DNA of 64,000 nucleotides from Candidatus Omnitrophota bacterium (GTDB taxonomy: Bacteria; Omnitrophota; Gorgyraeia; Tantalellales; Tantalellaceae). The notes under the pieces were generated by a model. It was not told the DNA's origin. It searched no databases and saw nothing but the letters and a program-made list of their open reading frames with translations. Within the stretch, counting starts at the first letter, position 1. Every line of letters begins with the position of its first letter. Made by a program: the position numbers and the translations under genes. Location: assembly GCA_049642065.1 (NCBI GenBank), contig JBAROK010000026.1, positions 1,868 to 65,867 of the forward strand, read 5' to 3'. Positions 2-32,014 of the stretch are shown in pieces.

Positions 2-421
2 CCTGCTTTTGGTGCGGGCATGGAATGCGAATATGGATGCATAGGGTTCGGGGATTGCACGCCGGTATGTCCGTTTGATGCTATCCACATGGAAAACGGG
101 TTGCCTAAAGTGGACGTTGAGAAATGCACCGGATGCGGTAAATGTGTTGAAGCGTGTCCCCGGGACATTATCAGTCTGCAGGAGAAGAAATTCAAAAATT
201 TATTTTATGTTGCGTGCAGCACGCATGATGGGGCGTTACGTGTAAGGCAGATCTGTTCAGTTGGTTGTATAGCATGCGGTATATGCCAGAAACTTTCGCC
301 GGAAGGATACTTTGAGGTCGTCGATAGTCTTTCCTGTCCGAATTACGATAAACAAGGCAAGCAGGAAGAAGTGGAAAAACTGGTCCAAAAGTGTCCGACT
401 AAGGTTATCAAAAAAACATAG
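2..421 (+). CDS. 4Fe-4S ferredoxin-domain protein, C-terminal part (RnfB-like). 5' end runs off the window.
   Basis: The frame is open from position 2. It carries two Cys clusters typical of 4Fe-4S binding: CTGCGKCVEACP and CSVGCIACGICQ. Confidence 0.55.
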   Translation, partial: PAFGAGMECEYGCIGFGDCTPVCPFDAIHMENGLPKVDVEKCTGCGKCVEACPRDIISLQEKKFKNLFYVACSTHDGALRVRQICSVGCIACGICQKLSPEGYFEVVDSLSCPNYDKQGKQEEVEKLVQKCPTKVIKKT

Positions 422-428
422 GCTTAAT

Positions 429-1037
429 ATGAACATTGCAGTTTTTGTTTCAGGGAACGGAAGCAATCTTCAGGCTTTGATAGACGCGGAAGCCAGGGGG
501 GAGCTTGCCACTGGCAAGATAACCCTTATTGTATGCGACCAGCCCGAAGCTTTCGCTTTAAAAAGGGCGGAGAAAGCTGAGATAAAGACTTTTGTGCTTG
601 AAGCGGCCGGAGTCGCATCAAGAGAAGAATACGATAAAAAAGTCGCAAAAGAGCTGGAAAAAGAAAATATAGAGCTTATCGTACTTGCTGGTTTTATGCG
701 CATCTTAAGTGGTGACTTTGTCGATAAGTATCAAGGCCGCATCATGAACATACACCCCGCGCTCCTGCCGTCATTCAAGGGCACTCACGGGATACGTGAC
801 GCGGTAGAGTATGGGGTGAAAGTTACCGGAGTCACGGTTCACTTCGTGGATCAGGGGCTTGATTCCGGACCGGTGATCCTGCAAAAGTGCGTGCCTATTG
901 AAAAGGAAGATACGATGGATACTCTGGAAGAGAAGATCCATAGCGAAGAACATAAAATGTATCCTGAGGCTGTAAGGTTATTCACCGAGAACAGGCTTAG
1001 GATTAACGGAAGAAGAGTTGATATCCTGGACAAATAA
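429..1037 (+). CDS. purN: phosphoribosylglycinamide formyltransferase
   Basis: N-terminus MNIAVFVSGNGSNLQALID plus a HPALLPSFKG-type motif; about 200 aa, the GART length. ATG at 429 is preferred over the overlapping upstream ORF-track start at 312. Confidence 0.88.
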   Translation: MNIAVFVSGNGSNLQALIDAEARGELATGKITLIVCDQPEAFALKRAEKAEIKTFVLEAAGVASREEYDKKVAKELEKENIELIVLAGFMRILSGDFVDKYQGRIMNIHPALLPSFKGTHGIRDAVEYGVKVTGVTVHFVDQGLDSGPVILQKCVPIEKEDTMDTLEEKIHSEEHKMYPEAVRLFTENRLRINGRRVDILDK

Positions 1038-2595
<1,558 letters not shown>

Positions 2596-2596
<1 letters not shown>

Positions 2597-3096
2597 TGCG
2601 TCTTCTTGACCAAAAATTCCGTAGCAATAAGTTAAAGTATATCGGCCAGGCGCTGCTTGGCGGTTTGGCTGTTGGCATAGCGCTTCAAACCTTTGATGTT
2701 GTCAATAAGCCGGTCATCATAGCTTCTTTTGGAGCCAGTGCGTTCATAGCGTTCACGATGCCAAATCAACCGATATCCCGCCCGAGATGTCTTATTGGCG
2801 GGTATGCGGTAGGATTGGTCGTGGGGGTTCTGATGAACACCCTTACGTTCTTGCCCGCTGAAGCATACATATTACAGAAAGAAATCGAGATCACAGGAGG
2901 AGCAATAGCTGTGGCTTTAGCGATGTTCTTGATGTCTATAACCAATACTGAGCATGCACCTGCTACTGGAGTAGCTTTGGGTCTTGTGATAAACGAATGG
3001 AGTCTTCTTACGCTGGGTCAGATAATGGCTGGAATAGTTGTTATCTCTGCGATACAGAGATTGCTCAGGCCTTGGATGATGGATCTCATCGAGTAG
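2596..3096 (+). CDS. HPP-family integral membrane protein
   Basis: Four hydrophobic helices. SFGASAFIAFTMPNQPISRPR resembles the HPP-family core, with PNQP in place of HPP. Confidence 0.55.
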
Positions 3097-4054
3097 CGTG
3101 AGATCTGAGGAAATCGTTAACTTGCCTTAACCCGGTTAATCCCTGCACCGCGCCATGTCCCGAACATATCAGAGCTGAGACAGCTGATGCGAATTCCAGA
3201 TTTCTCTTCATGTTTTTTAGAAATGCGTCTTTTCCGTCTGCCGAGTACCTGTAGATAAGTCCTGCAGTAAAACCGTCACCAGCACCGATAGTATCTTTTA
3301 TGCGTACCTTGAAAGCAGGTTGTGTTATCTTTTTCTTTCCGTTCCAATAGAACGCGCCTTTTGTTCCTAGGGTAACGATTATATCTCCCTTAAGATGTTT
3401 CTTAATCTTTTCAAGCGCCTTATTAAGGGTTTTTGCTTGTGTGATGTGCAAAGCATCATCTTCGCTGAGTTTCACAAGGTCGACATACGCAAGTATCTTT
3501 TTTATCCTTTGCCGTGCTTTGGCTTTATTCGGTATTTTGCTCTCACGCCAGTTCGGATCATATGTAATAAAAACGTTTCTTTTTTTAGCCAGCCGCAACC
3601 GTTTCATTACCGATCGGAAAAACACATCGCTATACGAGAAGAAAGAACTAGCATGAAACACCACCGCGGATTTAAAGGGGGTTTCGCAAAGATGTTGAGC
3701 CTTGTCTTTATGGGGAACTTCTTTCCCGTAAAAGATGTAAGAAGAGTTGCCTTTGGAATCTATGCTTGCGAGCGCAAGAGGTGCGTTTATGTTCTTATCC
3801 TTTATGATATGGCGGGTATCTATGCCTTTATCCTTGAGTATGCTTATAAGAGACTGGCTAAGAGAATCGGTTCCCAGTCGAGACATTAGAGCAACAGGCA
3901 GGTCGAGTAGGGCAAGGATCATTGAAGTATTTGTAGCAGATCCTCCGGGATAGGCATGCAGGGTTAAGGGCTTACCCTTAGAGGACTTTTTTGCCACAAG
4001 GTCAAAAAGCGTCTCTCCGCAACATATGATTTTTTTAGGTATATTCTTGCCCAT
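3086..4054 (-). CDS. PfkB-family carbohydrate kinase (ribokinase/fructokinase-like)
   Basis: N-terminal GETLFD and C-terminal GAGDGFTAGLIY (the PfkB anion-hole/ATP motif); 322 aa. Confidence 0.8.
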   Translation of the reverse strand: MGKNIPKKIICCGETLFDLVAKKSSKGKPLTLHAYPGGSATNTSMILALLDLPVALMSRLGTDSLSQSLISILKDKGIDTRHIIKDKNINAPLALASIDSKGNSSYIFYGKEVPHKDKAQHLCETPFKSAVVFHASSFFSYSDVFFRSVMKRLRLAKKRNVFITYDPNWRESKIPNKAKARQRIKKILAYVDLVKLSEDDALHITQAKTLNKALEKIKKHLKGDIIVTLGTKGAFYWNGKKKITQPAFKVRIKDTIGAGDGFTAGLIYRYSADGKDAFLKNMKRNLEFASAVSALICSGHGAVQGLTGLRQVNDFLRSHATR

Positions 4055-4153
4055 GCAATATTAATAATAACATACAACCCCCGTATCAACAACCCGGGAC
4101 GTAAATATGTCTATATGGCCAAAAAGAGGGAAATGGCCCATACAAGCTTTTTA

Positions 4154-4183
4154 TTGACATAACTGGCTTTTTCATGGTATAAT
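4154..4183 (+). promoter_or_regulatory. sigma70-type promoter: TTGACA, 18-nt spacer, extended -10 TGgTATAAT, upstream of the giant ORF
   Basis: Hexamers read directly: TTGACA 4154-4159, TG 4175-4176, TATAAT 4178-4183. They point toward the ORF at 4289. Confidence 0.6.
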
Positions 4184-4288
4184 CTGGCTTCCACTGTATA
4201 TAAATGATAGGGGCTAAGTAGATAAATCAACATATAAGACTAAAGATAAATACTATATAGAAGTGGCGCGTAAATAATATAAAAGAAT

Positions 4289-4381
4289 ATGGGAAACTTA
4301 TTTATCAAGCACAAAACATGGGTCAGGATAGTGGCAATAGGCGTAGTGTGCCTATTTCTTCTCAATGATTTTGCGTTCGCT
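4289..4381 (+). other. N-terminal signal peptide / membrane anchor of the giant protein (MGNLFIKHKTWVRIVAIGVVCLFLLNDFAFA|VED)
   Basis: A positively charged n-region, a hydrophobic core, and an AFA|V signal-peptidase-I-like site. Confidence 0.55.
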
Positions 4382-7300
4382 GTTGAGGATGTGGCACTGA
4401 GGAAAAATGCGTATACCCTTTCTCCGGTTTCCCGCATAAGGCCGATTATCACAATTGAGGATAATGACGGTGAGCTTACCATAGTCGAGGATGAACAGGA
4501 AAGATCCAGACTGATCGAAGGTTTTCAGGAAGACGCCGGTTTCATATACCTGAACACTCTCATAGCCCAGGTGCTTCAAAAGTTCGGCTCTAGGATAAGC
4601 GCCGAAGGGTTGAAAGAACTTATCTCCAAACATCTTTCCCACGTAGATTTCACTAATTTTAAATGGCAAGAGATTTACAAAGAAGGAGACGTCTTCTGCC
4701 TTCCATATGCTAGAAAAGATGATGGCCGTACACAGATATTAAAATTCTACCTTCCGAAAGACAAAGAAGTACAGTTTCCCCACGAGGTTGCTTTAAAGTT
4801 TGATGACGGTTCAACTGCCATATTAGAAGACCCGATGGCCGAGCTTCCGGAGCATCTTAAGAAAATCCGTGAGACCGCTGCCAGTATCGCAGGGCAAGGA
4901 ATATTGTCTGGGATGGAGCTAGCGGAAAGAGGGATTAAGGGGAGCGCCTCAGCGGACGTAAAGGATCTTTCAAAAGACGGCAGGCTTTCATGCAATATGA
5001 TCTTGGTGGAGAAGTCTGAGAGGGACAGGGAAGCTTTAGACAGAACACTTTATGATAAATACCAGGGAAGTTTTCAGGTAGTTGCCGAAAGAAGAGAAGA
5101 CGTAGAAGACAGAATCTTGCGTTGGCCGCAGAAAGAACTTGAAAGAATTCTTGGAGAAAGAGCTTCTCATAATTTTATCGTAATAATCGATCCGGCAAAA
5201 CTTCATCCTGTCAGCAGAGAAGATGTTAAGAGAGTGCCCCAGGGTGCCTATCGTTCATATATTGAGATGCGTTTCAGTTACGGGATAAGACCTGAAGCTT
5301 TCAAAGCCGTGCTAATACCTAAAGAACTTGTTCCCATTATAGGGAATGTCTTTCCGCCACATGTAAAGATCATTGAAGTAAACGGCACAAGGCAAAAAGA
5401 GTTGGAAGTGCTGAGGCAGGAACCGATGATGGTAGGAGAGCGTCGTATAGGGGAAGAATCTAGAACGCGTATGGTTAACATGGAATTGCCGGACTATGAA
5501 ACTGCCCTTAGCGATTATTTAAGAGGCATGTCTAGAGGAGATAAACTCCTGACCCATATCGTAAGGCTTACTGCTCCGTCTGATGTCGAGCCTGAAAAAT
5601 CCGAAAACGAAAAGAAACATATACAAGGAGATAGTTCTGGGGATGATGGGAATCCTTCAGCTAAAGGTTCGGGTGGCCCCGTAACGTTAATGAGTGTAGC
5701 CTTACCTGCCCTTGCTACAGCATTTTTAAACACAGGCGAAGCGATAGATCCACTGATACCTGTGCTTTTTGGGATTGTTGCATTAGTCGCGATACCTATA
5801 GCGCTTTATCATGCATACAGATTTTGTATCGGGATAATGACAGTGGCCTTAGGGGTCAGAGAAAGAATAGCGACTGAGTTTGTTTTGGGAGGCGGCCTTA
5901 TCGCTGCCGGGATCCATTTGGGGTTCGGTCAAGTTGTACCGTCTTTTACGGAATATATAGCATCACCACTTTTATGTAGTGCCGGGGCGTGCCTCATAAC
6001 TTTTGGTGCGTACGAACTCGTAAAAGGTCTCATCATAAAATGGTCAAAAAAACAGGAAGACACACCGAACTTGGGTTCAGTCAACTCTTATGATCTAGCG
6101 TCTCACGAACTTCTTCGGGAGCATCTTAGGTATGCGGGGCAGTTACAGGCATGGGGACAGGAAGTAGAAGGTACAGACTTTTCGCAATATTATCACGACA
6201 GGCTAACTGAAGCCGGGATAACTCTACCAGATGATCTTAATCTGATCGTAATAAAACATAATCATGGGCCCCAAGGATCGCTAGAACAGAAATTTCTTTA
6301 TTTTGAGCCTATGGCTGAAAAATGGATATTCTCTCATTCTGGAACGCGCAAAGGAACCGGTAAATTCGTATATCTTACTGAGGAATCTTTATATCTTCTT
6401 ACGCATAACGTAAGCAGACATCCTGATTGCAAAAAGTTTCTTGAAGAACTTTTAATGGAAGAATACGAACACGCTACCCTTAAGCTGGAAGGCCGCTGGG
6501 CACAGGATTCACATAAGCTTGGCGATTCGCATCTTAAGGAATATGTGGAAAAAAACTTTAAGCTAAGACAACTCAGGTTAGCGGAACCCGTAGCGACAGC
6601 TATAGCCGATAACTGGACAATATCCGGAAGCATAATAGAACTATTTATTGATTTTCACCTTAAGGAAAAAGTTCCGCTAGATATTGAAGCGAGGTTTCAT
6701 AGAGAAGCAACTGAAGCAACAGACCTGGGGGGAATAGCCCGCATAATGGCTAGCAGCGCCAAGAGTCCGGACCACGCGAGAGAAAGAGTGCTTGAAGATG
6801 TACAAGTGATGGTTAGGTATAACTTGGCACAGGCGCGCAAGACAATAGATTTTATGGACGAAATGGCGGCAAAAGTTTCGCCTGAAATAAGAGAAGGACA
6901 AGAGTTTAAGAATCTCGTTGCTTTCTTTGTGGAGAATTTGAGTGACGCAGAGCTATACAAGGAAATCATAGACGATGAGCACATTCAATATGACGAGATA
7001 AATATAGGTTATCTGGCAAGGGATACGATCAGGTTCCTTAAGTCCCTGAAACAGTTCGAGCACACCGATATTGTTTTTAAGAATGATACGCCGGAGACGA
7101 CCATTTTGGGTGAGCCATATCTTATACGCTGGGAATTTATCGGTGCAGTGTTGAGGGAGGTTGATAATCTGCCAAGAGGAAGCGGCAAGATAGAAATCGG
7201 ATATCGGCAAGATTCATCAAGGATAGGGATCGAATTCATAGCGGAAAACCCGGCAGAACGCGCGAGGTGGATCGAAAGCGTAAAAGATAAATGCGCTGAT

Positions 7301-10300
7301 CTGAACGGTGCTTTTTATCGCGAGCTTAGGAAAGAATATAGAAGGGATGCGGGATCATGTTTTGATGCTTCTTACGTTCTTTCCCGAGTGCTGGCGGAAC
7401 ATCTTGGTCTTCCGATCGATGGTGATTCTCCCGATAGGATAGAGATAGAGGTGGGAGAGTACCCGTCTACGAGGCTTCTTAAGCCTTCTATTCACGCTTG
7501 GGTAATTGTGTACAGAAAAGGGGAGAGAACTCTTCTTATCGACCCGACCAGAGGGCAGTATGACAAGGGACAGTATAACAAAATATTTGTTGGAGAGTAT
7601 GCGAAGGCGATGGAAGAGCTGGAGCTAATAGGTCCGGATGAGCTGAGAGGAAAAGATGACTATAGGGATATAAACGATATCTTATTCAGCCATACGAGCA
7701 AGGAACCCCTGGACCTGATGTCAAGCCGCGTGTTGGAGAATATGGAGCTAGTCAGCATACTCAGAAACAGGTTGGATCTCAGTATAGGAAACGCAAGTCT
7801 TGGTCTGACCGAGCGGTTTGATTTTCTGGTGGGTGCTAATAAAGAGAAAATAATCAAGGAAACTGCTTTTACTGTTGCGGAGATTAAAAGAAGTACAGGC
7901 AAAAATACTAGAATGGGAGTACGCGTGGGCTACAAGGATGAAAGCACGGGTACGCAGTTTGACCTTGTCCTGGATATTGCTTATTACGGGGACGTCGAAA
8001 AAGTCGAAATAGTCATAAAAGTGTCAACCTCAGATATCTCAAAAGTGTTCCTCCTCCCGGAGCCCAATACTGTTGATATGGTCTTTCTTGGCGGAGGTAA
8101 AGCTTCGCTAAAACCAGCAGCGAAAGAGGCACATCCCGTTAGGCGAGGGGGAGAAAAAAACATACGAACTGACGAAGAAGCCAATGAGATCATACCAGGA
8201 ATTTTCAAAGCGCTAGGTATTGAATCGGAAAAACTGGAATGGCGCGAAGAGGATGGGTTGGTAGTAGCCGACATGCCGGTAGAGATGCTTAAAGAGCAGG
8301 AGGTAAAATTAGCGTTTGATCTTCCCGAGAAGGCACCTGTTGCAGGAGAGCTATTGATAGCGTGTCACGGAAGCTCACCGATGTTTTTATGCTTAAGAGG
8401 TAAAAAGCAGCTCGTGAAGATCATCAATTTAATGCCCTATTACGAGGATCTTCCCGAAGAAACCGCATTACGCATTATGGGCAGACTGGACGCTAAATTC
8501 CCAATAATGGAATTCGTGGGACACTCGCCATATTCATATGCGGTATTCAATGAGTGGGGAGGGTTGATCGAAATAACATCCGGATATCCGAACACAAAAA
8601 AATACCGTATTCCGATACATGTTACGCGCATACCCATACTCCCAGGGGTGTACGGAGGATCCCACTCATCGAGCGAGATAAGTGCCCGCGCTACAGTCGA
8701 ATATGCTAAACCAGGCATGAAAGTGCTTGTTGTCGGAACCGGCAAAGGTCTTGAGGCTCGAATAGCGGCGCTGCGGGGTGCTACTGTAGATGCCGTGGAC
8801 ATAAGAGAACTTGCAGTCGCGAACACTAAAATAACCTGTTATCAAGCGGGCGTGTCGGATAAAGTGAACGCATTCTGCAACGATCTTTTTAACGGGCTCG
8901 GGAAATATGATCTTATTATCTTTAACATGCCGCATGCCTCCGATGAACCGCTGGTTCACGATCTAGTTACAAGTAAAGACCGTAATACCAGTGATTTCGG
9001 AGGAGCATTGCTTGACAGGGTAGCCGATGAGATAGCAAAACACATGGCGCTGGGAGGTAAAGCCGTTCTTATCAATAGTGAATCTTTTATTACGGAAAAG
9101 AAACTGAAAGAAAGAACAGGGTTTAGCGTTAGATCGGACTTCTTTGATGTTGCCGGAGGATCAAAAGCGTACATTATAGAGAGGCCCGATTCAGATAGGG
9201 AAAAATCTGCCGGGATTTTACGTCTTCCTTCGCCGCGCGGGCATGTTCCCGATATACAGGGAAACATTGAAAGGGCTAAAAGGAATATGTGCCAGCCTTT
9301 AGAGCAGGACAATTCTACTATAGTTAGTGAAAAAGATATCGACTGGACGGCGATAAACGCGTACATGCGCCAGAAGAAACTGAAGGTATACCCCAAAAAA
9401 GACAGGCCTGTCGTACATGTAGTGGACATACAAGGCGAGAACGGAAAAGACCTTTTCGGGTTTCCGCTTGTACCGGGCCATGAGGAGTTTGAGGGAATTG
9501 TACCGGTCATATCGTACAGGTCCTTAAAGGACGACCGGTTGCACGTGTTCATGACAGCCGGCCTTTATGACGACTATCTTGAAGTATCCCACATGAGAGC
9601 GACTAGAAGCGCGAAAACGCTTCGTATTGTCCGGCTCGCCGAAATACTTGATCACGAGATCTTTGAACATTCCGAGGAAGCTCTTGCTGAGCCCGAAGAA
9701 GAAAGGCACCATCTTGCTGCGCTCCGCGCCGGGCATTTTATCCCGCGTGGCCAGAAAATAAGCGCGTTCCACAAATGGGTCTTGGACAATATGGCGCTTA
9801 CAGAAAACGGACGCGAACATATAATGCTTATGCTTGACGAAGAGAGGCCAGAGCCGGAGAGGTCCAGCCAGCGTAAATACGAAAGGAATTTTTATAATTA
9901 CGCCAAGAGCGTGTTACCAAGGGAAAAATATTCAGGCAAAGTGCAGCGTGCCGCTCATCATCTTTTGAGAGTATACGGGCACGGAGATGTACACGCTTTT
10001 GAAGAATTGTGCGTAAAAGTCGGAGTAGACCCCAAAGCGCTTAGTAAAGCGATCGAGCAAGAGGAGAAAAAACACGTGTTGAACGCCGTTGAAGGGTTTA
10101 AGCCGGATATAGTTATTACGGAGACGAGTGAGACGAATGTGGAGATAGATAACACAAAAGCCATTGTAAGAAAGCTGCTCAAGAACCAATACGCTGATTT
10201 TGTATGGAACGCGCTGATGAAAGCCAAACACGGGCCGGAATGTATGACGGTGCTGTTGGAGGTACTTGCTAAACACGGTAAAGATGTCTTCTGCAGCGAG

Positions 10301-13300
10301 AAGATGGAGCCTGTTATAGAGTATGCGTTCAGGGAACTAAAACGGTACGATAAAGAGAAATACGAGAGAGTAAGCGATAAGGCCGGTACAGTACTTGAGG
10401 TAGTTTCAGATTATATGGATCAGCTGGCGATACTTGCCAGTTATCTTCTTGCCCAGGAAAGGTTGGGAGGGCTTATAGCGGACTTTACGATAATCGACGG
10501 CCAGATATACCAAGAAAAGGTGACCCCTCTTACAGTTTATCTTCAGCAGCTTATTAGCGGAACGGGCCCCTTCGAAGACCTTAAAGATAAATCTTACGAG
10601 AACAAAGTAAGGATAGGGTGGGACGTTCTGGAAAAATATATCGAATGTATTCAAGAGATAGCTAAAAGGGGAGCAGTAATATGTAACGTTAAGTTAACTA
10701 ATTTTGGTATAAGAGAGAACGGTGAAGTGGTTCTTTTTGACCTGGGAAGGTCGTCTTTGGGGTGGCATGACAGAGGAGAGATAAACCAGGAGTTCGCGCT
10801 TACCCTGCTTGGTACGAAAATAGCAATGGATGCCAGGCGACTTGAGAACTTGAATGCCGAAGGTGTTTTTGAAGAAACGGGCATACGTCATGATTTTGGA
10901 GATGATGAGCAAGCCCAAAAACTTCAAACGGAACTAGCGCGGATATGGACAGAACTAATCTCCGCAAGACCCATTGCGGAGGGTGACGAGGAGGCCGTGA
11001 AGATACTGGATGGCAGGGAGTTTGTTGAGAGGGTCAAGACCATTCTCCCAAAAACACCGGAAGAAGCTGAACCCGAATACAGGAGGATAACGTTCATCCC
11101 AAACGAAATAGCGGGGGAAGAGATCTTACAGGTAATAATGAAGGAGATAGATGACAGTAAAACAGAAACAACGTCCTCGCTTCCACAAGGATCCATACAT
11201 GGCGTTTTCACATATCTATGTGAAAATAATGTTATAAATCCTGAAACTAGTTTACCGGGCGATCTGATAGCTAATGGTCTTGACCGCCAGTTTGGAACGA
11301 TAAAGTATGACCTGAGAGCTTTATTTTACCATTTGCATCTTATTGAAAAAGCGGATGTCAAGGAGACCGGCAAGAGCGCCAGATACTACGTACCGGAAAG
11401 GGTAAAGAAGAAAGCCGCCAGGATATTACCTGTTCTTACCCGTTTTGTTGGAGAAGACCGTGTGCCCAAAGTAACACTTCTTGATAAAGTTTACGAAGAA
11501 GAGATAGCCCCCATTCTGCAAGCCCTGCCCCAAACAAGATGCAGACCCAAGCCCATTGAAGGAAAAGCGCCGATAATCCTTATCCTGGGATGGCCCGGAT
11601 CAGGTAAGACTACCCTTGGAAGATCTTTGAGCCAGGAGCTGGGAGTGCCTCATATCTCAATAGGTACATTGATAGCGCAAGAAAGGGAACGCAACCCTGA
11701 TTTTGATCCGGCGCTTCTTAACAGTAACGACTACGTCTATGGTGAGCTTCTTGAGAATGCGCTTGGGGAGTGCGATCTTACAGGAGGTGTTATTATTGAC
11801 AATTCTCCACGTACACCTGATGCGATAAACGCATTAAAAGAAATACTCGAAGCCAAAGGTCTCAAGCTCGGGGCGATAATAGAGCTTACTATTAGCAGGA
11901 GAACTGCCGGTTCACGTATGGTAAAAAGGTCCAGAGAAGAGGGAAGAAACTGGGACAGGAGCAGGAAAGTAAGGCGCAAAAAAATGGACATGTACCGGAA
12001 GATGGCGATGCCGCAGCTTGATCAGTGGCGCAAGAAAGGACTTGTATGTTCGCTGGACGCGGAAGTGGAACCGTGGATCCTGGAAGCCAGAGCGCTTGGA
12101 AGGTTGAATGAGAAAGGCGTGGTTTCGCTGCATCCGCAAAGTGACGAACAGACACATAAGCCACTCACTCCGATTAAAGAAGAGGGCTCCATAGAGTTAG
12201 CTGGCAAGAAATTCCGTTTAGCGACTATAGCAATAAGTGATACCTATAAATCACTTGAAGTGTTTGATGAAGAGACCGGCAAGCGTGTGGGTTTCTTTTA
12301 CGCTATGGTGGGAGACGAAACTAGTCCTCATTGTGCTGATGTTTGCGGAATAAGGGGAATACACCTCAAGCCCCAATACAGGGGGCTAGGATTATCAGCG
12401 AAGATGATGGAAATATTTTTCCAGAAGTTTAGAGAAGTTAATCTGCTTCTTGATGAGATAATGAACCCCATGCTAATTCACATGGCAAAAGAACATTTTG
12501 GGTTTTTGCCTGTTAACCCGGTCCCGGAGAACAGGGTGTACATAAACCTTAAGCAGGGAAGATCCAGCAAGCCAAAGATATGGATACCTGAAGATTTTCT
12601 GAGGCGTTCATACAGTATGGGTCCACCGGAAACTATGCGCAAAGAGTTCGAAGTGCTTCAGGAAGAGCCGGACAATCTAGACGATTTTGAAAAGGTATAT
12701 TTCCGTACTGCGTACAAACGGGTTTACCATCCAGGACTTAGGCTGGAAGGTGTAGATGCTGTTATTACTGATTTTGATGGCGTGGATAGAGACCACAGCA
12801 TGGATGTCGTGAGCGAAGAAACCATTGCGGCAAAGAGAGGACTATCAAGAAGAGGTGTTCATAACATAACGATTACAGGACTCGAACAGGGCAAGCTTTT
12901 CAGGCGTTTCGGCGGGGCAAAAAGAGCCGGGAAGATAAGTACCCGAGATGATTATATCGCTCTTAGCTGTTCCGGGGCTGTTGCTAACCAGGTAACAAAA
13001 GATGGCCAGATAAAACCGCTTGCAGGGTTTAAGGGTGTTTCGTTGGGAGACAGAAAGACAAAACAGGATATTGCAAGGATAGCTAGAAAGGCTTTACTTA
13101 TAGCTTGCCGAGAAGCGGGCATACCACAGGAAGCTGCCGATAATGTCGAAGAATCGATCAGGGAAGAGCAGGTATCTCTTATTGCGAGGGGCGATGAAAG
13201 AATTAGTGCGATACGTTACAGAGTAGCGGAGATTATCCGTAAAGAGCTAAAAAAACAAGGCTTTCCAAAGAATATTGAAGTTTCAGCTTCATTCGTGGCA

Positions 13301-14776
13301 GTGGACATTACCAGTACGTCCAAGGGCAAGGCCGCGATCCAGATGATTAAGCTTTTGAAGCTTACGAAAGTAGTACTAATAGGTGATTCCGTTGGTACTG
13401 AAGAGAAGCCCGGCAATGATAGGAGCTTACTTGTTTTGACTAAAAAAGATATCCGGGCCGCCGGGATAGACTGGGAAGTTGAGCTCATACCTGTTTATGT
13501 AGGACGAGAGGAGAATTATACTCTTCCGGAGAACGTTATTATCTCTCCTCAGGGCGAAAGAGAAATCGATCCTGCACTCAACCTGTACAACGCTGTTATA
13601 AGGGCACAGGACGAGGTAGCGCTACGCGAACTAGCAAAAGAAAAGACCATGAGAGTATGGGGATCGCTTGATAAGAAGAGATTGACCAAATGGTTACAGG
13701 AATGGAAGAAGATATATAAGATCCAAGGTAAGATAGATATAAAACGCCTTTTCAAGGACAGGGTCGGCAGGACACTGTCTTTCAGTATCGGTGAGCACAA
13801 TTGTACGGTTACGTTCGATGTAACAAAAAGCATGAATACCGGCAAAGTGCGGCTGACGATAATGGGCATGCATCTTGACGGAAAACTCAGGGAAAAGCGG
13901 CTTATGTCCATGTTGACCCTGTATCTTATTCAGCCTTATAAGTGCGATGAAGTTTATCACGACAGGATGAACGAGAAATTCGGAGAAAAATTCTTCAAAG
14001 GCTTGAAAAAGCTTGGTATTTACAGCGATATTACATATTCTGAAAAACAGAAAGGTAAATACAGGAACGGGCTGGGGATAATAGATAAAAAGCGCGTCAA
14101 AGAAATCACACATAACACAGAAGCTCTTAAGAAGTTTATCTCAAAAGACGAGGATAGCCGAGGCAAGGAAGGTTTATCTAATGAGGTAAAGGGCAGTCAG
14201 GAGGCAGCTGGCAGATTCGTTGACGAGATAATTATAAGAGCTTTTGAAGCGCAAAAAGAAGGGCAGGATATTATTATTGGTGTAGATACCAGCTGGATAC
14301 CTGATATGCAGGGAGTGCAGCTAGTGTTAAATGAACTATCCCGCATTTCAAGACGTAAAGGGTTTAAGAATATCCATTTTATAAGAGGCAGGGGAGCCGA
14401 ACTGGCGGAGCTTATTTCAAAAAGAGTAGAGAAGACAGGAACCGCACTTTCAAACGTTATAGTGCTTGCTGAAGAACATGTTTTGCAGGCGGATCAGTTT
14501 AATGGTCTGAGAAGTACTGAAGATGAAGAAAAAGCTTTTCTGGTGGGGGTTGATCCAAAGCATCTTACCGACAAAAGTTATACTAGAATACTTGAGATGC
14601 TGACCTTGGCGGTTAAGCTCGCTTTCAGCGAGCAGGAAAAAGCTGAAATTTTTGGAGTATCGGCTACCCGTATTGGTCCAAGAACGTGGATATTTATTCC
14701 CGAGGCGTGTCCGATGGACTTTGAGGAAAGAAAAGCTATTTATAAAGCCCAGATGCAGGCGCTAATCGCAGCCTAA
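4289..14776 (+). CDS. giant multidomain membrane-anchored protein (3,495 aa); motifs are detailed in the sub-features
   Basis: Single uninterrupted frame of 10,488 nt, with a promoter upstream and a hairpin terminator downstream. Multiple independent catalytic motifs occur in the same frame. All ORF-track antisense ORFs across this span are short. Confidence 0.85.
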   Translation: MGNLFIKHKTWVRIVAIGVVCLFLLNDFAFAVEDVALRKNAYTLSPVSRIRPIITIEDNDGELTIVEDEQERSRLIEGFQEDAGFIYLNTLIAQVLQKFGSRISAEGLKELISKHLSHVDFTNFKWQEIYKEGDVFCLPYARKDDGRTQILKFYLPKDKEVQFPHEVALKFDDGSTAILEDPMAELPEHLKKIRETAASIAGQGILSGMELAERGIKGSASADVKDLSKDGRLSCNMILVEKSERDREALDRTLYDKYQGSFQVVAERREDVEDRILRWPQKELERILGERASHNFIVIIDPAKLHPVSREDVKRVPQGAYRSYIEMRFSYGIRPEAFKAVLIPKELVPIIGNVFPPHVKIIEVNGTRQKELEVLRQEPMMVGERRIGEESRTRMVNMELPDYETALSDYLRGMSRGDKLLTHIVRLTAPSDVEPEKSENEKKHIQGDSSGDDGNPSAKGSGGPVTLMSVALPALATAFLNTGEAIDPLIPVLFGIVALVAIPIALYHAYRFCIGIMTVALGVRERIATEFVLGGGLIAAGIHLGFGQVVPSFTEYIASPLLCSAGACLITFGAYELVKGLIIKWSKKQEDTPNLGSVNSYDLASHELLREHLRYAGQLQAWGQEVEGTDFSQYYHDRLTEAGITLPDDLNLIVIKHNHGPQGSLEQKFLYFEPMAEKWIFSHSGTRKGTGKFVYLTEESLYLLTHNVSRHPDCKKFLEELLMEEYEHATLKLEGRWAQDSHKLGDSHLKEYVEKNFKLRQLRLAEPVATAIADNWTISGSIIELFIDFHLKEKVPLDIEARFHREATEATDLGGIARIMASSAKSPDHARERVLEDVQVMVRYNLAQARKTIDFMDEMAAKVSPEIREGQEFKNLVAFFVENLSDAELYKEIIDDEHIQYDEINIGYLARDTIRFLKSLKQFEHTDIVFKNDTPETTILGEPYLIRWEFIGAVLREVDNLPRGSGKIEIGYRQDSSRIGIEFIAENPAERARWIESVKDKCADLNGAFYRELRKEYRRDAGSCFDASYVLSRVLAEHLGLPIDGDSPDRIEIEVGEYPSTRLLKPSIHAWVIVYRKGERTLLIDPTRGQYDKGQYNKIFVGEYAKAMEELELIGPDELRGKDDYRDINDILFSHTSKEPLDLMSSRVLENMELVSILRNRLDLSIGNASLGLTERFDFLVGANKEKIIKETAFTVAEIKRSTGKNTRMGVRVGYKDESTGTQFDLVLDIAYYGDVEKVEIVIKVSTSDISKVFLLPEPNTVDMVFLGGGKASLKPAAKEAHPVRRGGEKNIRTDEEANEIIPGIFKALGIESEKLEWREEDGLVVADMPVEMLKEQEVKLAFDLPEKAPVAGELLIACHGSSPMFLCLRGKKQLVKIINLMPYYEDLPEETALRIMGRLDAKFPIMEFVGHSPYSYAVFNEWGGLIEITSGYPNTKKYRIPIHVTRIPILPGVYGGSHSSSEISARATVEYAKPGMKVLVVGTGKGLEARIAALRGATVDAVDIRELAVANTKITCYQAGVSDKVNAFCNDLFNGLGKYDLIIFNMPHASDEPLVHDLVTSKDRNTSDFGGALLDRVADEIAKHMALGGKAVLINSESFITEKKLKERTGFSVRSDFFDVAGGSKAYIIERPDSDREKSAGILRLPSPRGHVPDIQGNIERAKRNMCQPLEQDNSTIVSEKDIDWTAINAYMRQKKLKVYPKKDRPVVHVVDIQGENGKDLFGFPLVPGHEEFEGIVPVISYRSLKDDRLHVFMTAGLYDDYLEVSHMRATRSAKTLRIVRLAEILDHEIFEHSEEALAEPEEERHHLAALRAGHFIPRGQKISAFHKWVLDNMALTENGREHIMLMLDEERPEPERSSQRKYERNFYNYAKSVLPREKYSGKVQRAAHHLLRVYGHGDVHAFEELCVKVGVDPKALSKAIEQEEKKHVLNAVEGFKPDIVITETSETNVEIDNTKAIVRKLLKNQYADFVWNALMKAKHGPECMTVLLEVLAKHGKDVFCSEKMEPVIEYAFRELKRYDKEKYERVSDKAGTVLEVVSDYMDQLAILASYLLAQERLGGLIADFTIIDGQIYQEKVTPLTVYLQQLISGTGPFEDLKDKSYENKVRIGWDVLEKYIECIQEIAKRGAVICNVKLTNFGIRENGEVVLFDLGRSSLGWHDRGEINQEFALTLLGTKIAMDARRLENLNAEGVFEETGIRHDFGDDEQAQKLQTELARIWTELISARPIAEGDEEAVKILDGREFVERVKTILPKTPEEAEPEYRRITFIPNEIAGEEILQVIMKEIDDSKTETTSSLPQGSIHGVFTYLCENNVINPETSLPGDLIANGLDRQFGTIKYDLRALFYHLHLIEKADVKETGKSARYYVPERVKKKAARILPVLTRFVGEDRVPKVTLLDKVYEEEIAPILQALPQTRCRPKPIEGKAPIILILGWPGSGKTTLGRSLSQELGVPHISIGTLIAQERERNPDFDPALLNSNDYVYGELLENALGECDLTGGVIIDNSPRTPDAINALKEILEAKGLKLGAIIELTISRRTAGSRMVKRSREEGRNWDRSRKVRRKKMDMYRKMAMPQLDQWRKKGLVCSLDAEVEPWILEARALGRLNEKGVVSLHPQSDEQTHKPLTPIKEEGSIELAGKKFRLATIAISDTYKSLEVFDEETGKRVGFFYAMVGDETSPHCADVCGIRGIHLKPQYRGLGLSAKMMEIFFQKFREVNLLLDEIMNPMLIHMAKEHFGFLPVNPVPENRVYINLKQGRSSKPKIWIPEDFLRRSYSMGPPETMRKEFEVLQEEPDNLDDFEKVYFRTAYKRVYHPGLRLEGVDAVITDFDGVDRDHSMDVVSEETIAAKRGLSRRGVHNITITGLEQGKLFRRFGGAKRAGKISTRDDYIALSCSGAVANQVTKDGQIKPLAGFKGVSLGDRKTKQDIARIARKALLIACREAGIPQEAADNVEESIREEQVSLIARGDERISAIRYRVAEIIRKELKKQGFPKNIEVSASFVAVDITSTSKGKAAIQMIKLLKLTKVVLIGDSVGTEEKPGNDRSLLVLTKKDIRAAGIDWEVELIPVYVGREENYTLPENVIISPQGEREIDPALNLYNAVIRAQDEVALRELAKEKTMRVWGSLDKKRLTKWLQEWKKIYKIQGKIDIKRLFKDRVGRTLSFSIGEHNCTVTFDVTKSMNTGKVRLTIMGMHLDGKLREKRLMSMLTLYLIQPYKCDEVYHDRMNEKFGEKFFKGLKKLGIYSDITYSEKQKGKYRNGLGIIDKKRVKEITHNTEALKKFISKDEDSRGKEGLSNEVKGSQEAAGRFVDEIIIRAFEAQKEGQDIIIGVDTSWIPDMQGVQLVLNELSRISRRKGFKNIHFIRGRGAELAELISKRVEKTGTALSNVIVLAEEHVLQADQFNGLRSTEDEEKAFLVGVDPKHLTDKSYTRILEMLTLAVKLAFSEQEKAEIFGVSATRIGPRTWIFIPEACPMDFEERKAIYKAQMQALIAA
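5675..6050 (+). other. internal block of 4-5 predicted transmembrane helices (aa ~463-587) in the giant protein
   Basis: Consecutive hydrophobic stretches: LMSVALPALATAFL, LIPVLFGIVALVAIPIALY, FVLGGGLIAAGIHLGFG, IASPLLCSAGACLITFGAY. Confidence 0.6.
7300..7600 (+). other. transglutaminase-like cysteine-protease core (Cys1024-His1069-Asp1085) in the giant protein
   Basis: GSCFDASYVLSRVLAEHLGLP (Cys codon 7358-7360), SIHAWVIVY (His codon 7493-7495) and LLIDPTRG (Asp codon 7541-7543). This matches the C...HAW...DPT pattern of the transglutaminase-like superfamily. Confidence 0.6.
8700..9120 (+). other. class I SAM-dependent methyltransferase-like domain with an N-M-P-H motif IV (amino-group MTase type) in the giant protein
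   Basis: Motif I VLVVGTGKG at 8723-8749; acidic beta-2 end AVDI; motif IV DLIIFNMPH with NMPH at 8924-8935, where N6-adenine and protein Gln/Lys methyltransferases have (D/N)PP(Y/F). Confidence 0.55.
10660..10760 (+). other. protein-kinase-like catalytic-loop/DFG-like signature (possibly degenerate) in the giant protein
   Basis: VICNVKLTNFG aligns to HRDLKPxN with Asn in the Asp position. It is followed 10 aa later by VVLFDLGRS (DLG 10739-10747). Confidence 0.35.
11560..11960 (+). other. adenylate-kinase-like (NMP kinase) P-loop domain in the giant protein
   Basis: Walker A ILILGWPGSGKTT (11588-11614); GVIIDNSPRTPDAINAL resembles the adenylate kinase GFLLDGFPRT segment; ISRRTAGSRMVKR resembles the LID arginines. 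Confidence 0.6.
12200..12520 (+). other. GNAT-type N-acetyltransferase-like domain in the giant protein
   Basis: VGFFYAMVGDE...VCGIRGIHLKPQYRGLGLSAKMMEIF matches GNAT motif A (R/Q-x-x-G-x-G/A). Confidence 0.5.
12746..13470 (+). other. HAD-superfamily phosphatase-like domain (Cof/SPP type) in the giant protein
   Basis: Motif I VITDFDGVD (Asp 12770, Asp 12776), a conserved Lys region SKGKAAIQ, and motif IV VVLIGDSVGTEEKPGND (Asp 13385, Asp 13418). Confidence 0.5.
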
Positions 14777-14805
14777 TTTCGATCCAGAACATGCAACAAT
14801 TGACA

Positions 14806-14840
14806 AAAAGCCCGGGTAATTTAATAACCGGGCTTTTTAT
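14806..14840. terminator. bidirectional rho-independent terminator for the giant ORF (+) and tRNA-Met (-)
   Basis: Stem agcccgg / ccgggct with a 12-nt loop. A T-run follows on the + strand and an A-run precedes it, which reads as a T-run for the - strand. Confidence 0.7.
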
Positions 14841-14845
14841 ATATT

Positions 14846-14920
14846 TGGTTGCGGGGGACGGAATCGAACCGCCGACCTTGAGGTTATGAGCCTCACGAGC
14901 TACCCCTGCTCCACCCCGCG
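14846..14920 (-). tRNA. tRNA-Met (anticodon CAT), initiator-like
   Basis: The reverse complement reads CGCGGGGTGGAGCAGGGGTAGCTCGTGAGGCTCATAACCTCAAGGTCGGCGGTTCGATTCCGTCCCCCGCAACCA. It has a cloverleaf, a CAT anticodon, three G-C pairs in the anticodon stem, an unpaired C1 as in fMet tRNAs, and an encoded CCA. Confidence 0.9.
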
Positions 14921-15050
14921 TCAATAACTATTTAGAGTGAGTGATTATAGCAAATAAAACTAACACAGGCAAGGAGTTTTTGACAAAAACACAAGAGCCT
15001 ATCGGTACAGCGGTTTAATACCTATATATTGTGTAGTTACCCCATAATAA

Positions 15051-15079
15051 TTGACAGTAAGTATTATATATGTTATAAA
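15051..15079 (+). promoter_or_regulatory. sigma70-like promoter (TTGACA, 17-nt spacer, TATAAA) upstream of purB
   Basis: Hexamers read directly, 55 nt upstream of the purB ATG. Confidence 0.45.
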
Positions 15080-15133
15080 AAATATCTCTGATTCAAGTAA
15101 TCACTAATTTTCCCTAAAATCAGGAGAGAAAAT

Positions 15134-16426
15134 ATGATAGAAAGATACTCACGCCCGGAAATGGCCAGAATATGGACGGATGAAAATAAGTTTCGCAAAA
15201 TGCTCGAGGTAGAGATACTTGCCTGTGAAGCTTTCGCGAAATTAGGTGAAATTCCCAAAGATGCGGTCAAAGTCATCAGGAAAAAAGCCGATATTGACGT
15301 TCAGCGGATAAAAGAGATAGAAGAAGTTACCAATCACGACGTGGTCGCGTTCATAAAGAACGTATCTGAGAACGTGGGTGAGGAAGCTAAATATTTTCAC
15401 TACGGGCTCACTTCCAGCGATATACTTGATACGGCTCTTTCGGTGATGATGGTGGAAGCTATAGATATTATCGAAAAAAGCCTTGCTGAATTCGTCGAAG
15501 TGCTCAAAAAGAAAGCTCTCGAGTATAAGAAGACACCGATGATGGGTCGTTCCCACGGTGTGCACGCAGAACCGATATCATTCGGGTTGAAACTGGCGGT
15601 TTATTACAAAGAGATGCAGAGGAACCTTGAACGGGTTCGGGATGCAAGAGAGACCATCGCTGTAGGTCAAATGTCCGGTTCTGTAGGAACTTTCGCGAAT
15701 GTTGACCCTTATGTGGAAGAGTATGTCTGTAAGAAACTGGGGCTTAAACCCGCGGGTGTTTCCAGTCAGATCATCCAGCGTGATCGTCACGCATATTACC
15801 TGAACGTACTAGCTATTGTAGGAGCGTCATTGGAAAAGATAGCTCTTGAAATAAGGGGTCTTCAGAAAACAGAAATAGGCGAGGTACAAGAATACTTTGC
15901 TAAGGGCCAAACCGGTTCATCAAGCATGCCCCATAAAAAGAACCCTATCATATGCGAACGTATAGTCGGTATGGCAAGGCTTTTGAGGGGGAATGCGACA
16001 GCGGCACTTGAGAATGTGGCTCTCTGGCATGAGCGCGATATCTCACATTCTTCGGTGGAACGTGTGATAATACCGGATTCCACGATACTCTTGGATTATA
16101 TGCTCGCAAAAGCCAAACCTCTCATTGAGAAACTGGTAGTTAACGAGGAAAAGATGCTGGAGAATATTGGTGCTACCAAAGGGCTGGTCCATTCTCAGCA
16201 CATCATGCTCGAGCTTATCAAACGAGGTGCTACTCGCATGAAAGCTTACGAGATAGTCCAGAAAGCGGCCCTTGAAGCTTACAACAGCGGGAAGGATTTC
16301 CAAAGCCTCATGCTTGAGGATGCTAGGATGAACGAGTACATGTCGCGGGAAGAAATAGAAAACTGTTTCGACTTAGAGTATCATCTTCGTCAGATCGATA
16401 AAATTTTCAAGAACATAGGTCTGTAA
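15134..16426 (+). CDS. purB: adenylosuccinate lyase
   Basis: N-terminus MIERYSRPEMARIW; 430 aa; fumarase/ASL family SSxMPxKxNP signature GSSSMPHKKNP. Confidence 0.95.
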   Translation: MIERYSRPEMARIWTDENKFRKMLEVEILACEAFAKLGEIPKDAVKVIRKKADIDVQRIKEIEEVTNHDVVAFIKNVSENVGEEAKYFHYGLTSSDILDTALSVMMVEAIDIIEKSLAEFVEVLKKKALEYKKTPMMGRSHGVHAEPISFGLKLAVYYKEMQRNLERVRDARETIAVGQMSGSVGTFANVDPYVEEYVCKKLGLKPAGVSSQIIQRDRHAYYLNVLAIVGASLEKIALEIRGLQKTEIGEVQEYFAKGQTGSSSMPHKKNPIICERIVGMARLLRGNATAALENVALWHERDISHSSVERVIIPDSTILLDYMLAKAKPLIEKLVVNEEKMLENIGATKGLVHSQHIMLELIKRGATRMKAYEIVQKAALEAYNSGKDFQSLMLEDARMNEYMSREEIENCFDLEYHLRQIDKIFKNIGL

Positions 16427-31968: not shown

Positions 31969-32001
31969 ACCGCCAGGGATATTCCTCGGCGGTTATCTTT
32001 T
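31968..32001 (+). terminator. terminator-like hairpin after the transketolase C subunit
   Basis: Stem aaccgcc / ggcggtt with a 13-nt loop, then atctttt. Confidence 0.4.
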
Positions 32002-32014
32002 ATATAATAGTAGG

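Follow-up and report, generated by a model that had tools for sequence, protein, structure and literature searches.

What kind of gene occupies positions 4289 to 14776 of a 64,000-nt stretch of DNA from a Candidatus Omnitrophota bacterium (GenBank assembly GCA_049642065.1, contig JBAROK010000026.1, positions 1,868 to 65,867 of the forward strand; hereafter the window): is it one real gene and, if so, what is its product built to do? A first-pass annotation had described a single uninterrupted open reading frame (ORF) encoding one membrane-associated protein with several enzyme-like modules that use differing cofactors, and our analysis supports this description. In the ORF listing, one stop-free frame runs on the + strand from the ATG at 4289 to the stop codon at 14776, encodes 3,495 amino acids (aa) and is by far the longest in the window. 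It is well supported that this is a genuine single gene set among housekeeping genes, that it encodes a Sec-targeted, membrane-embedded modular protein, and that this protein falls in the middle of the size range of a family whose members carry an exchangeable string of shuffled enzyme and regulator modules between a conserved head and a conserved tail. At least four recognisable nucleotide-, S-adenosylmethionine (SAM)- or acetyl-CoA-binding folds lie in the one chain. Together with the membrane-tethered cytoplasmic hub proposed below, this makes up our best explanation, to which as a whole we give a probability of roughly 0.6.

Integrity of the reading frame

Two NCBI/ENA contigs, one of 27.7 and one of 107 kb, encode the identical 3,495-aa protein, which there belongs to a metagenome-assembled genome of a Candidatus Omnitrophota bacterium (GCA_049642105.1) and is labelled ‘nucleoside monophosphate kinase’ after one of its domains. 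A third assembly, JGI 3300060480 (45-kb contig), differs from the window by 3 single-nucleotide polymorphisms (SNPs) across 14,844 bases. Two of these are synonymous (9229 and 9272); at the third (13130, + strand), which falls inside the HAD-like module, the window has G and the JGI contig has T (position 11842 of locus L002), turning GAA (Glu2948) into TAA. Because of this stop, the JGI annotation has two genes in its place, with products of 2,947 and 493 aa. Either a minor allele or an error in the consensus accounts for the stop at codon 2948. An assembly chimera of 4289–14776 is very unlikely, and it is ruled out in practice because the three assemblies are concordant to within 3 SNPs in 14.8 kb. 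The concern that the product might be repetitive or of low complexity was not borne out: the amino-acid composition of the translation is ordinary, with E at 9.4%, L at 9.6%, K at 7.4% and C at 0.9%, no biased 250-aa block or low-complexity segment was found in it, and sensitive self-BLAST detected no internal repeats. The start codon at 4289 is supported because homologues align from residue 1.

The first-pass annotation had also regarded the architecture as one for which no characterised protein was known. This uniqueness does not hold, as the search for orthologous long ORFs in related genomes returned both a collinear protein and a large family. The collinear protein, P0006 (Omnitrophota, 3,866 aa, N-terminally truncated), follows aa 489–3350 of the window protein with 51% identity over 2,846 aa, and has an extra ~790 aa between the collinear part and the shared C-terminal domain. 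P0006 keeps all catalytic-type motifs, and identity is highest in the enzyme cores, at 69% in the methyltransferase and 83% in the kinase-like core (aa 2051–2150), which argues for purifying selection along the whole chain. Another close relative, P0005, has most modules in common with the window protein in a different arrangement.

A conserved head and tail

Relatives were collected by an exhaustive HMMER search with aa 1–1200 as query against 1.84 billion representatives, which gave 187 matches, the longest family member retrieved being 7,572 aa. Whole-protein comparison covered 149 retrieved sequences. Across these, aa ~1–185 of the window protein align to the extreme N-terminus of relatives and aa ~3296–3495 to the extreme C-terminus, while the middle aligns patchily and in other orders and copy numbers. 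With hidden Markov models (HMMs) built for the two ends, the N-domain is found in 108 of the 149 sequences, nearly always with its start no later than residue 15, and the C-domain in 71, ending no more than 38 aa from the C-terminus. The two occur together in 69/149, in proteins ranging from 663 to 7,094 aa, and proteins with the N-domain only are mostly short fragments. In all, the family comprises at least 100 clusters that share the N-domain and/or the C-domain with the window protein, on which the family HMMs match aa 3–188 (E 1e-89) and aa 3297–3497 (E 4e-86).

The N-domain, or head (aa 32–190; 4382–4858, + strand), carries the motifs TLSPxSRF, F-x-E-D-A-x-F-x-Y-L, H-x-D-F-x-R-F, C-L-P-Y and L-R-Y-Y-L. 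The C-domain, or tail (aa 3296–3495; 14174–14773, + strand), carries IIIG-x-D-T-S-W-I-P, G-L-x-N, S-N-x-I-V-L-G, A-F-L-x-G-V-D-P and L-E-M-L-T. They measure ~150 and ~200 aa, and their AlphaFold2 (AF2) models have a mean confidence score (pLDDT) of 84.9 and 93.3, respectively. No close solved homologue was found for either. Judged from these models, head and tail are predicted to be real, compact globular domains, and the tail is predicted to have a Rossmann-like alpha/beta fold that is not a known translocator or sorting domain.

All nine family members whose source is named come from Candidatus Omnitrophota, as does the syntenic locus L003 described below. Database names follow differing cargo domains (GNAT, HTH, 6-phosphogluconolactonase, pentapeptide repeat), and a Pfam scan of 19 members shows how wide the cargo is. 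It includes regulatory domains (HATPase_c, HisKA, REC, Hpt, PAS, GAF, sigma-70 region 2, HTH_8) as well as SecA_DEAD/P-loop_SecA, DnaJ, PTS EIIA, alpha-amylase, Fic, GNAT and methyltransferases; the set of SecA_DEAD, P-loop_SecA and SecA_PP_bind is present in one of the 19. Dozens of other family ORFs of 2–7 kAA (thousand aa) have been repeatedly recovered by independent assemblies.

No further family copies were found in the window or in the other fetched loci, and each locus examined has one such gene. A weak N-domain HMM match (E 3.5e-4, HMM positions 27–61) falls in an 82-aa frame at 31785–32030 (− strand), antisense to an ORF at 32015–32881, and is probably noise from a hydrophobic segment. 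As a general processing site, the pattern [LIVMC]EDP was considered and rejected: it is enriched only at the end of the N-domain, in 15/69 members, and occurs elsewhere at chance frequency.

Cargo exchange at a syntenic locus

The position of the gene allowed us to compare the interior of different family members at one chromosomal site. The gene order purN-eno-divIC-HPP(-pfkB) is kept in three Omnitrophota genomes, namely the window, locus L003 (7082–13531) and locus L006 (6201–21343). At all three the long gene has the N-domain, and it has the C-domain wherever the contig reaches the 3′ end, while the interior is wholly different. At L003 (eno-divIC-HPP-gene, without pfkB) the N-domain is followed directly by module F, described below, in tandem duplicate. 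The 3,780-aa protein P0009, encoded in the order purN-eno-divIC-HPP-pfkB-gene, combines this head and the family tail with an interior of Glycos_transf_1, HATPase_c_2, a methyltransferase and two G modules.

Family members also occupy other housekeeping loci. P0126 (7,094 aa; GNAT, several methyltransferases, Fic, Pkinase) lies at lepA-lepB-pgsA-plsY / rimP-nusA-infB. Its gene (L005, 10001–31285) is three genes 3′ of the signal peptidase I gene lepB (L005, 8068–8673), a proximity that is probably coincidental.

Enzyme-like modules of the interior

Modules of the interior were delimited by the number of relatives sharing each stretch; all lie on the + strand. The domain that gave the protein its database label is the most securely identified. 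The adenylate- or nucleoside monophosphate (NMP)-kinase-like domain (aa 2430–2592; 11576–12064) has the P-loop GWPGSGKTT and matches Pfam ADK (9.9e-13; 48.9 against a cut-off of 26.8 bits) and AAA_17 (1.8e-13), both above cut-off, as well as adenylate kinases in the PDB (1.3e-13). These matches confirm the adenylate-kinase-like P-loop previously noticed at this position. The NCBIfam adenylate kinase model also matches (4.9e-22), at 78.6 bits, far under its equivalog cut-off of 187.

A class I SAM methyltransferase core (aa 1452–1614; 8642–9130) is marked by motif I VLVVGTGKG, the acidic loop VDAVDI and motif IV NMPH, and belongs to a recurrent unit of aa ~1270–1650 whose motifs are identical in P0006. 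The methyltransferase with NMPH that had been proposed from its motifs is supported as HemK/MTS-like by matches to NCBIfam PRK14968 (1.7e-14) and HemK2/MTQ2 (8e-12), which are below the family cut-offs, and Pfam MTS falls just short, at 20.8 against a cut-off of 23 bits. The NMPH motif, kept in P0006, replaces NPPY ((N/D)PPY in enzymes of the HemK/MTQ2/PrmA type).

Module F (aa 1633–2301; 9185–11191) consists of an N-terminal part followed by a protein-kinase-like core at aa ~2060–2160. This core has the catalytic loop NVKLTN and the Mg-binding motif D2151-L-G, with Asn2133 at the position of the catalytic Asp. A six-sequence profile (aligned stretch RG-x-x-x-x-N-V-K-L-T-N-F-G ... V-V-L-F-D-L-G) matches MSK1 (E 7e-4) at its catalytic loop and DFG region, with further matches to OSR1, BIKE and PLK3, and Pfam returns PIP49_C (0.0076) and AceK_kinase (0.017). 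The kinase-like signature is therefore supported at profile level, with the catalytic Asp replaced; that position is Asn in the window protein and P0006 and Asp in P0045 and P0095. Within module F, aa 1751–1950 are 69–72% identical to P0006. The first half of the module (aa 1640–1990; 9206–10258) has strictly conserved D-H-E-x-x-E-N and R-H-H motifs, which suggest a metal site; Pfam gave no match for it, whether in aa 1600–2000 of the window protein or in the two relatives scanned.

For three further modules the earlier assignments are borderline or stand at motif level. The GNAT acetyltransferase-like module (aa 2630–2815; 12176–12733), common to P0005, P0041 and P0045, has motif A QYRGLGLS at 2696–2703. 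Its aa 2659–2739 score above the Acetyltransf_1 cut-off when scanned as a piece (21.2 against 20.7 bits, E 3.7e-4) but below it in the whole-protein scan (16.4 bits), so that the match is borderline. In the Cys-His-Asp module (aa 990–1150; 7256–7738), which had been read as a transglutaminase-like core, C1024, R1050, E1052, H1069 and Q1090 are invariant across 11 relatives and D1085 is nearly so. However, Pfam gave no profile match in 11 members beyond a trace of Tox-PLDMTX (0.19) in one of them, and the module profile had no relevant PDB match. At the level of its motifs, the module is a candidate papain/transglutaminase-like hydrolase. The HAD-IIB-like motif set (aa 2820–3060; 12746–13468) comprises D2828-F-D2830-G-V, ITITG, TSK3012G and GDS...GND. 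Motifs I–IV are invariant in the orthologues compared, P0005 and P0006 included, but Pfam gave no match and a three-sequence profile finds no HAD protein in the PDB, leaving the proposed phosphatase a motif-level assignment.

Module G (aa 2290–2420; 11156–11548) is a possible winged-helix unit of ~125 aa, with weak matches in relatives to TrmB (0.007), LexA_DNA_bind (0.04) and HTH_27 (0.09). It is present two to three times in other members (P0012, P0009, P0098), as if it were a spacer or a binding unit. Two modules without a Pfam match recur at varying positions in other long proteins: module B (aa 190–445; 4856–5623) in ~20 of them and module C (aa 588–770; 6050–6598) in ~8 relatives. Sharing is narrowest in aa 770–990, 1150–1270 and 3070–3295, which occur solely in the two closest relatives; the last of these, region X (13496–14173), is common only to P0005 and P0006. 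The more than 1,500 aa that had been set down as without motif turn out to be mostly recurrent family modules (the N-domain, B, C, the extension preceding the methyltransferase, F1, G and the C-domain).

Signal peptide and membrane topology

The N-terminus (aa 1–31; 4289–4381, + strand) has the features of a Sec-type signal peptide, with K7, K9 and R13 in the n-region, an h-region containing C-L-F-L-x-N-D, which is conserved in the family, a hydropathy peak of 2.43 at aa 14–32, and a predicted cleavage site AFA|VE. The family pattern agrees with the cleavable signal peptide that had been suspected here: over 85 aligned family N-termini, net charge in the n-region averages +3.3, apolar or small residues make up 87% of the h-region, and A, S, V, T or G occupies position −3 in 75/85 and A, S, G or T position −1 in 79/85.

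A hydrophobic membrane block follows at aa 460–580 (5666–6028, + strand), after which comes KWSKK, and is conserved in P0005 and P0006. On the Kyte–Doolittle scale clear segments begin at about aa 462, 489, 532 and 556, and a short R-flanked one spans 512–523, in keeping with an earlier count of four to five transmembrane (TM) helices. The loop at aa 508–530 (YR...RER) and the KWSKK past the last span are rich in K/R, whereas the loops at 479–488 and 551–556 are acidic. Given this pattern, the simplest predicted topology has an odd number of spans, three or five, so that the enzyme string of ~2,900 aa would face the cytoplasm.

Proposed function and alternative explanations

We propose that the signal peptide takes the first ~430 aa (N-domain and module B) through the inner membrane and that the hydrophobic block at aa 460–580 anchors the chain. 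The Cys-His-Asp, methyltransferase, kinase-like, winged-helix-like, NMP kinase, GNAT and HAD-like modules and the C-domain would then form a string on the cytoplasmic face, which offers ATP, SAM and acetyl-CoA. Tethered to the membrane, such a protein may serve as a hub of activities that modify proteins or small molecules, with input from whatever its periplasmic head binds, and the hub could have to do with the dependence on a host that has been proposed as the lifestyle of the phylum. Several points weigh against this proposal. Its topology comes from hydropathy and the positive-inside rule applied by hand, and if the four clearest segments are taken as the spans the enzyme string becomes periplasmic. 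Two relatives, P0085 (Hpt, HisKA, HATPase, 8 PAS, GAF, REC) and P0098 (two sigma-70 region 2 domains), have a signal-peptide-like N-terminus and no other hydrophobic span, with cargo that seems incompatible with export, so the family as a whole speaks against a simple rule that the cargo stays inside. In P0005 an insert of ~200 aa with GNAT-type motifs, recognised by eye, lies N-terminal of the membrane block. Asn2133 and NMPH may mean that some modules are inactive or changed in function, and one natural or assembly variant has the stop at codon 2948. Finally, at 3.5 kAA the protein is under the length thresholds of the published catalogues, and the gene is known here from sequence alone.

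We rank the cytoplasmic hub only slightly above a reading in which the whole chain is sent out as a multi-effector array, analogous to MARTX or Legionella-type effectors. The membrane block would then only tether the chain or form a conduit, the modules would act on or in a host or prey cell supplying ATP, SAM and acetyl-CoA, and head and tail would serve export, anchoring or delivery. Such export, which we hold to be doubtful, draws on the canonical signal-peptidase I pattern conserved across the family, on the many members without any stop-transfer segment, and on the four clear hydrophobic segments that would leave the C-terminal string outside; Fic and Pkinase are also found among the cargo of relatives (P0126, P0011). 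Kinase-like, GNAT, methyltransferase, Cys-His-Asp and phosphatase-like modules are also typical of host-modifying effectors, Omnitrophota have been proposed to be episymbionts or predators, a giant protein of V. archaeovorus is up threefold in attached cells, and the layout, with variable central enzymes between conserved termini, recalls that of MARTX. Yet no secretion-system genes adjoin the gene in the window or at the two other loci examined, the modelled Rossmann-like C-domain is not a known translocator or sorting domain, and the K/R distribution at the membrane block favours a cytoplasmic string. Cargo such as His-kinase phosphorelays, sigma-70 region 2, DnaJ, PTS EIIA and a SecA motor makes little sense outside the cytoplasm. 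A wider reading of the family, which we advance tentatively, would make it a phylum-specific ‘cassette carrier’ whose ends are fixed and whose modules are swapped, duplicated and reordered even at one site; if the signal peptide is functional in members without a stop-transfer segment, the family would export cytoplasmic-type machinery (kinases, Fic, GNAT, methyltransferases, His-kinase relays, sigma-factor domains) from an ultra-small episymbiotic cell.

The chain might instead be a polyprotein precursor, a single translation product cut into separate enzymes, possibly by its own Cys-His-Asp module, and for giant Omnitrophota proteins with C39 or S8 peptidase domains self-cleavage has been suggested (West-Roberts et al. 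2023). The window protein does carry a module with invariant Cys and His and a near-invariant Asp, its modules act as independent shufflable units joined by less conserved linkers, and the idea has a precedent in the literature, as a hypothesis. But the Cys-His-Asp module is present in only ~10–17 of the ~150 retrieved members and is therefore not a general processing device, its protease fold is a reading of motifs, and no recurrent inter-module motif was found; we consider processing of this kind unlikely. An artefact or a decaying gene, in the form of a chimera, fused neighbours or functionless, pseudogene-like domain accretion, would be suggested by the premature stop in one assembly, the start without a Shine–Dalgarno sequence and the two non-canonical catalytic motifs. 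Against it stand the agreement of the assemblies, the collinearity of P0006 and the shared modules of P0005, motif residues conserved at 51% overall identity, the repeated independent recovery of other family ORFs of 2–7 kAA, and a composition that agrees with the flanks. This last alternative is largely refuted already and we give it hardly any weight; the modular family member with a membrane-tethered cytoplasmic string remains our preferred explanation.

Expression signals and neighbouring genes

The long ORF was said to have its own promoter and terminator, and signals of both kinds are present. A sigma-70-type promoter-like site at 4154–4183 (+ strand) has TTGACA, an 18-nt spacer and a TG-extended TATAAT; it matches the consensus at 12/12 positions and is the top-scoring site in the 11.3 kb scanned (3900–15200). 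A leader of ~105 nt separates the −10 box from the ATG. No Shine–Dalgarno-like sequence was found 5′ of the ATG at 4289 (window 4260–4291; aaaagaatATG); the next gene, purB, at 15134, is preceded by AGGAGA, unlike the long ORF. Downstream, an intrinsic-terminator-like hairpin at 14805–14838 (+ strand) consists of AAAAAGCCCGG, a 12-nt loop and CCGGGCUUUUU. It forms 11 bp between an A-run and a U-run (dG −17.8 kcal/mol, z −3.35, 0/200 shuffles as stable), and was not returned by the terminator scan because its loop is 12 nt. A tRNA-Met gene (CAT) on the − strand (14846–14920), with its own promoter-like site (14944–14972, 10/12), adjoins the hairpin. With an A-run on one side and a U-run on the other, the hairpin could stop transcription from both directions.

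Upstream of the long ORF lie purN, eno, divIC, a gene for an HPP membrane protein and pfkB (− strand), at 312–4054 of the window. Downstream, the tRNA-Met gene (− strand) is followed by purB, purM, purD, purE, a low-molecular-weight phosphatase gene and glyA. Farther along the window are a surA-like gene, ftsH, dnaB, bamA, an ABC transporter, an aas-like gene and rtcB, and the presence of BamA implies a diderm cell. No secretion-system genes adjoin the long ORF, and the nearest ABC transporter is 33 kb off. A horizontal-transfer island was considered and rejected: the GC content of the ORF (0.43–0.47) and its skew agree with the flanks, which show no anomaly in either and consist of housekeeping genes. 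Near the end of the window, a 551-aa ORF at 61508–63163 (+ strand) joins a weak match to Glyco_hydro_100 (invertase-like) to a PTS HPr domain, an unusual fusion that is in keeping with the domain-fusion habit of this genome.

Significance

Very long multi-domain proteins are a hallmark of the Omnitrophota, and the window protein alone is one further example, less exceptional than first thought. What the comparison provides is two marker domains, definable by HMM, with which such proteins can be found and classified, evidence of cargo exchange at a fixed locus, and small members, down to 663 aa, that can be expressed for localisation and activity tests. These three together make the question of giant proteins more directly testable. 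If the cassette-carrier export reading were true, the family would deliver or display multi-effector arrays in a new way, and its members of 660–1,000 aa would be tractable models for the giant Omnitrophota proteins. The head-and-tail organisation makes the protein moderately interesting and experimentally approachable.

Comparison with known systems

The mix of activities had at first been likened to MARTX toxins, a resemblance that does not extend beyond layout: both are large polypeptides with conserved ends and variable enzymes, a cysteine hydrolase among them. MARTX toxins have glycine-rich A/B/C repeats, whereas the window protein has no repeats and no RTX-type Pfam match. Their inositol-hexakisphosphate-dependent cysteine protease was likewise not detected here, as Pfam scans of the whole protein and of its pieces gave no Peptidase_C80 match. 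Secretion of MARTX toxins relies on a type I signal at the C-terminus, and they are encoded adjacent to rtxBDE-type and acyltransferase genes; the window protein has a Sec signal peptide, and no such genes lie next to its gene. In the window family, moreover, head and tail are single compact domains, predicted to be globular.

Polymorphic toxins of the Rhs or CdiA kind share with the window family the conserved trafficking-type end or ends, cassette-like replacement and a conserved chromosomal position. In the window family both ends are conserved and the middle varies. There is no immunity gene 3′ of the ORF, where tRNA-Met and purB are found instead, there are no Rhs/YD, FHA or PT-domain matches, and the cargo is not a typical nuclease or deaminase toxin.

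With a stand-alone adenylate kinase (Adk) the protein shares the ADK fold of aa 2430–2592, including the P-loop and the PRT motif. Stand-alone Adk has ~180–220 aa, and the ADK-like domain makes up 5% of the window protein. The Adk consensus has the P-loop GxGKGT and a GDxxR segment; in the window protein the P-loop is GSGKTT and the Arg of the GDxxR segment is replaced.

The closest likeness is to the giant proteins of the Omnitrophota themselves, in which giant ORFs are common; Seymour 2023 and West-Roberts 2023 cover the wider phenomenon. Nielsen & Lui 2026 (bioRxiv 10.64898/2026.06.07.730766) describe 916 proteins of at least 10 kAA, with ‘multi-enzyme’ as class 1 and methyltransferase/HATPase/GNAT/HAD as Pfam module 1; 39% of the set have a signal peptide and TM helices, and 80% of the sequence clusters are singletons. 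West-Roberts 2023 reports giants with many TM regions, SecA-like domains in most, and N-terminal regions without identifiable domains apart from C39/S8 peptidases. Size thresholds in these studies are at least 10,000 aa (Nielsen & Lui), at least 20 kb (Seymour) and at least 30,000 aa (West-Roberts), and the catalogued giants are 3 to 40 times as long as the window protein with its 3,495 aa. The window protein also has a single membrane block where the giants have dozens of helices, and the Pfam scan gave no match to SecA, HEAT, TPR, C39 or dockerin in it. A conserved terminal domain pair or syntenic cargo replacement was not found mentioned in Nielsen & Lui 2026 or West-Roberts 2023, and the head-and-tail organisation is possibly undescribed.

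In other respects the likeness is extensive. The window protein and the giants belong to the same phylum, have a signal peptide and TM helices, and tile many unrelated, mostly cytoplasmic-type enzyme domains of which none dominates; the window protein has one copy each of ADK/AAA_17, the MTS-type methyltransferase, GNAT and the kinase-like core. The vocabulary of domains is shared too, with methyltransferase, GNAT, HAD-like, kinase and ATPase here and SecA_DEAD, HATPase_c, PAS and REC in the family, as are the puzzle of localisation and the poor conservation between species. The giant ORFs of candidate phyla such as Omnitrophota, which the gene had called to mind in the first-pass annotation, thus prove the apt comparison, and both the organism and the domain mix match class 1 of Nielsen & Lui. 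The window protein fits, in all but size, the published Omnitrophota multi-enzyme type, as one of its smaller members.

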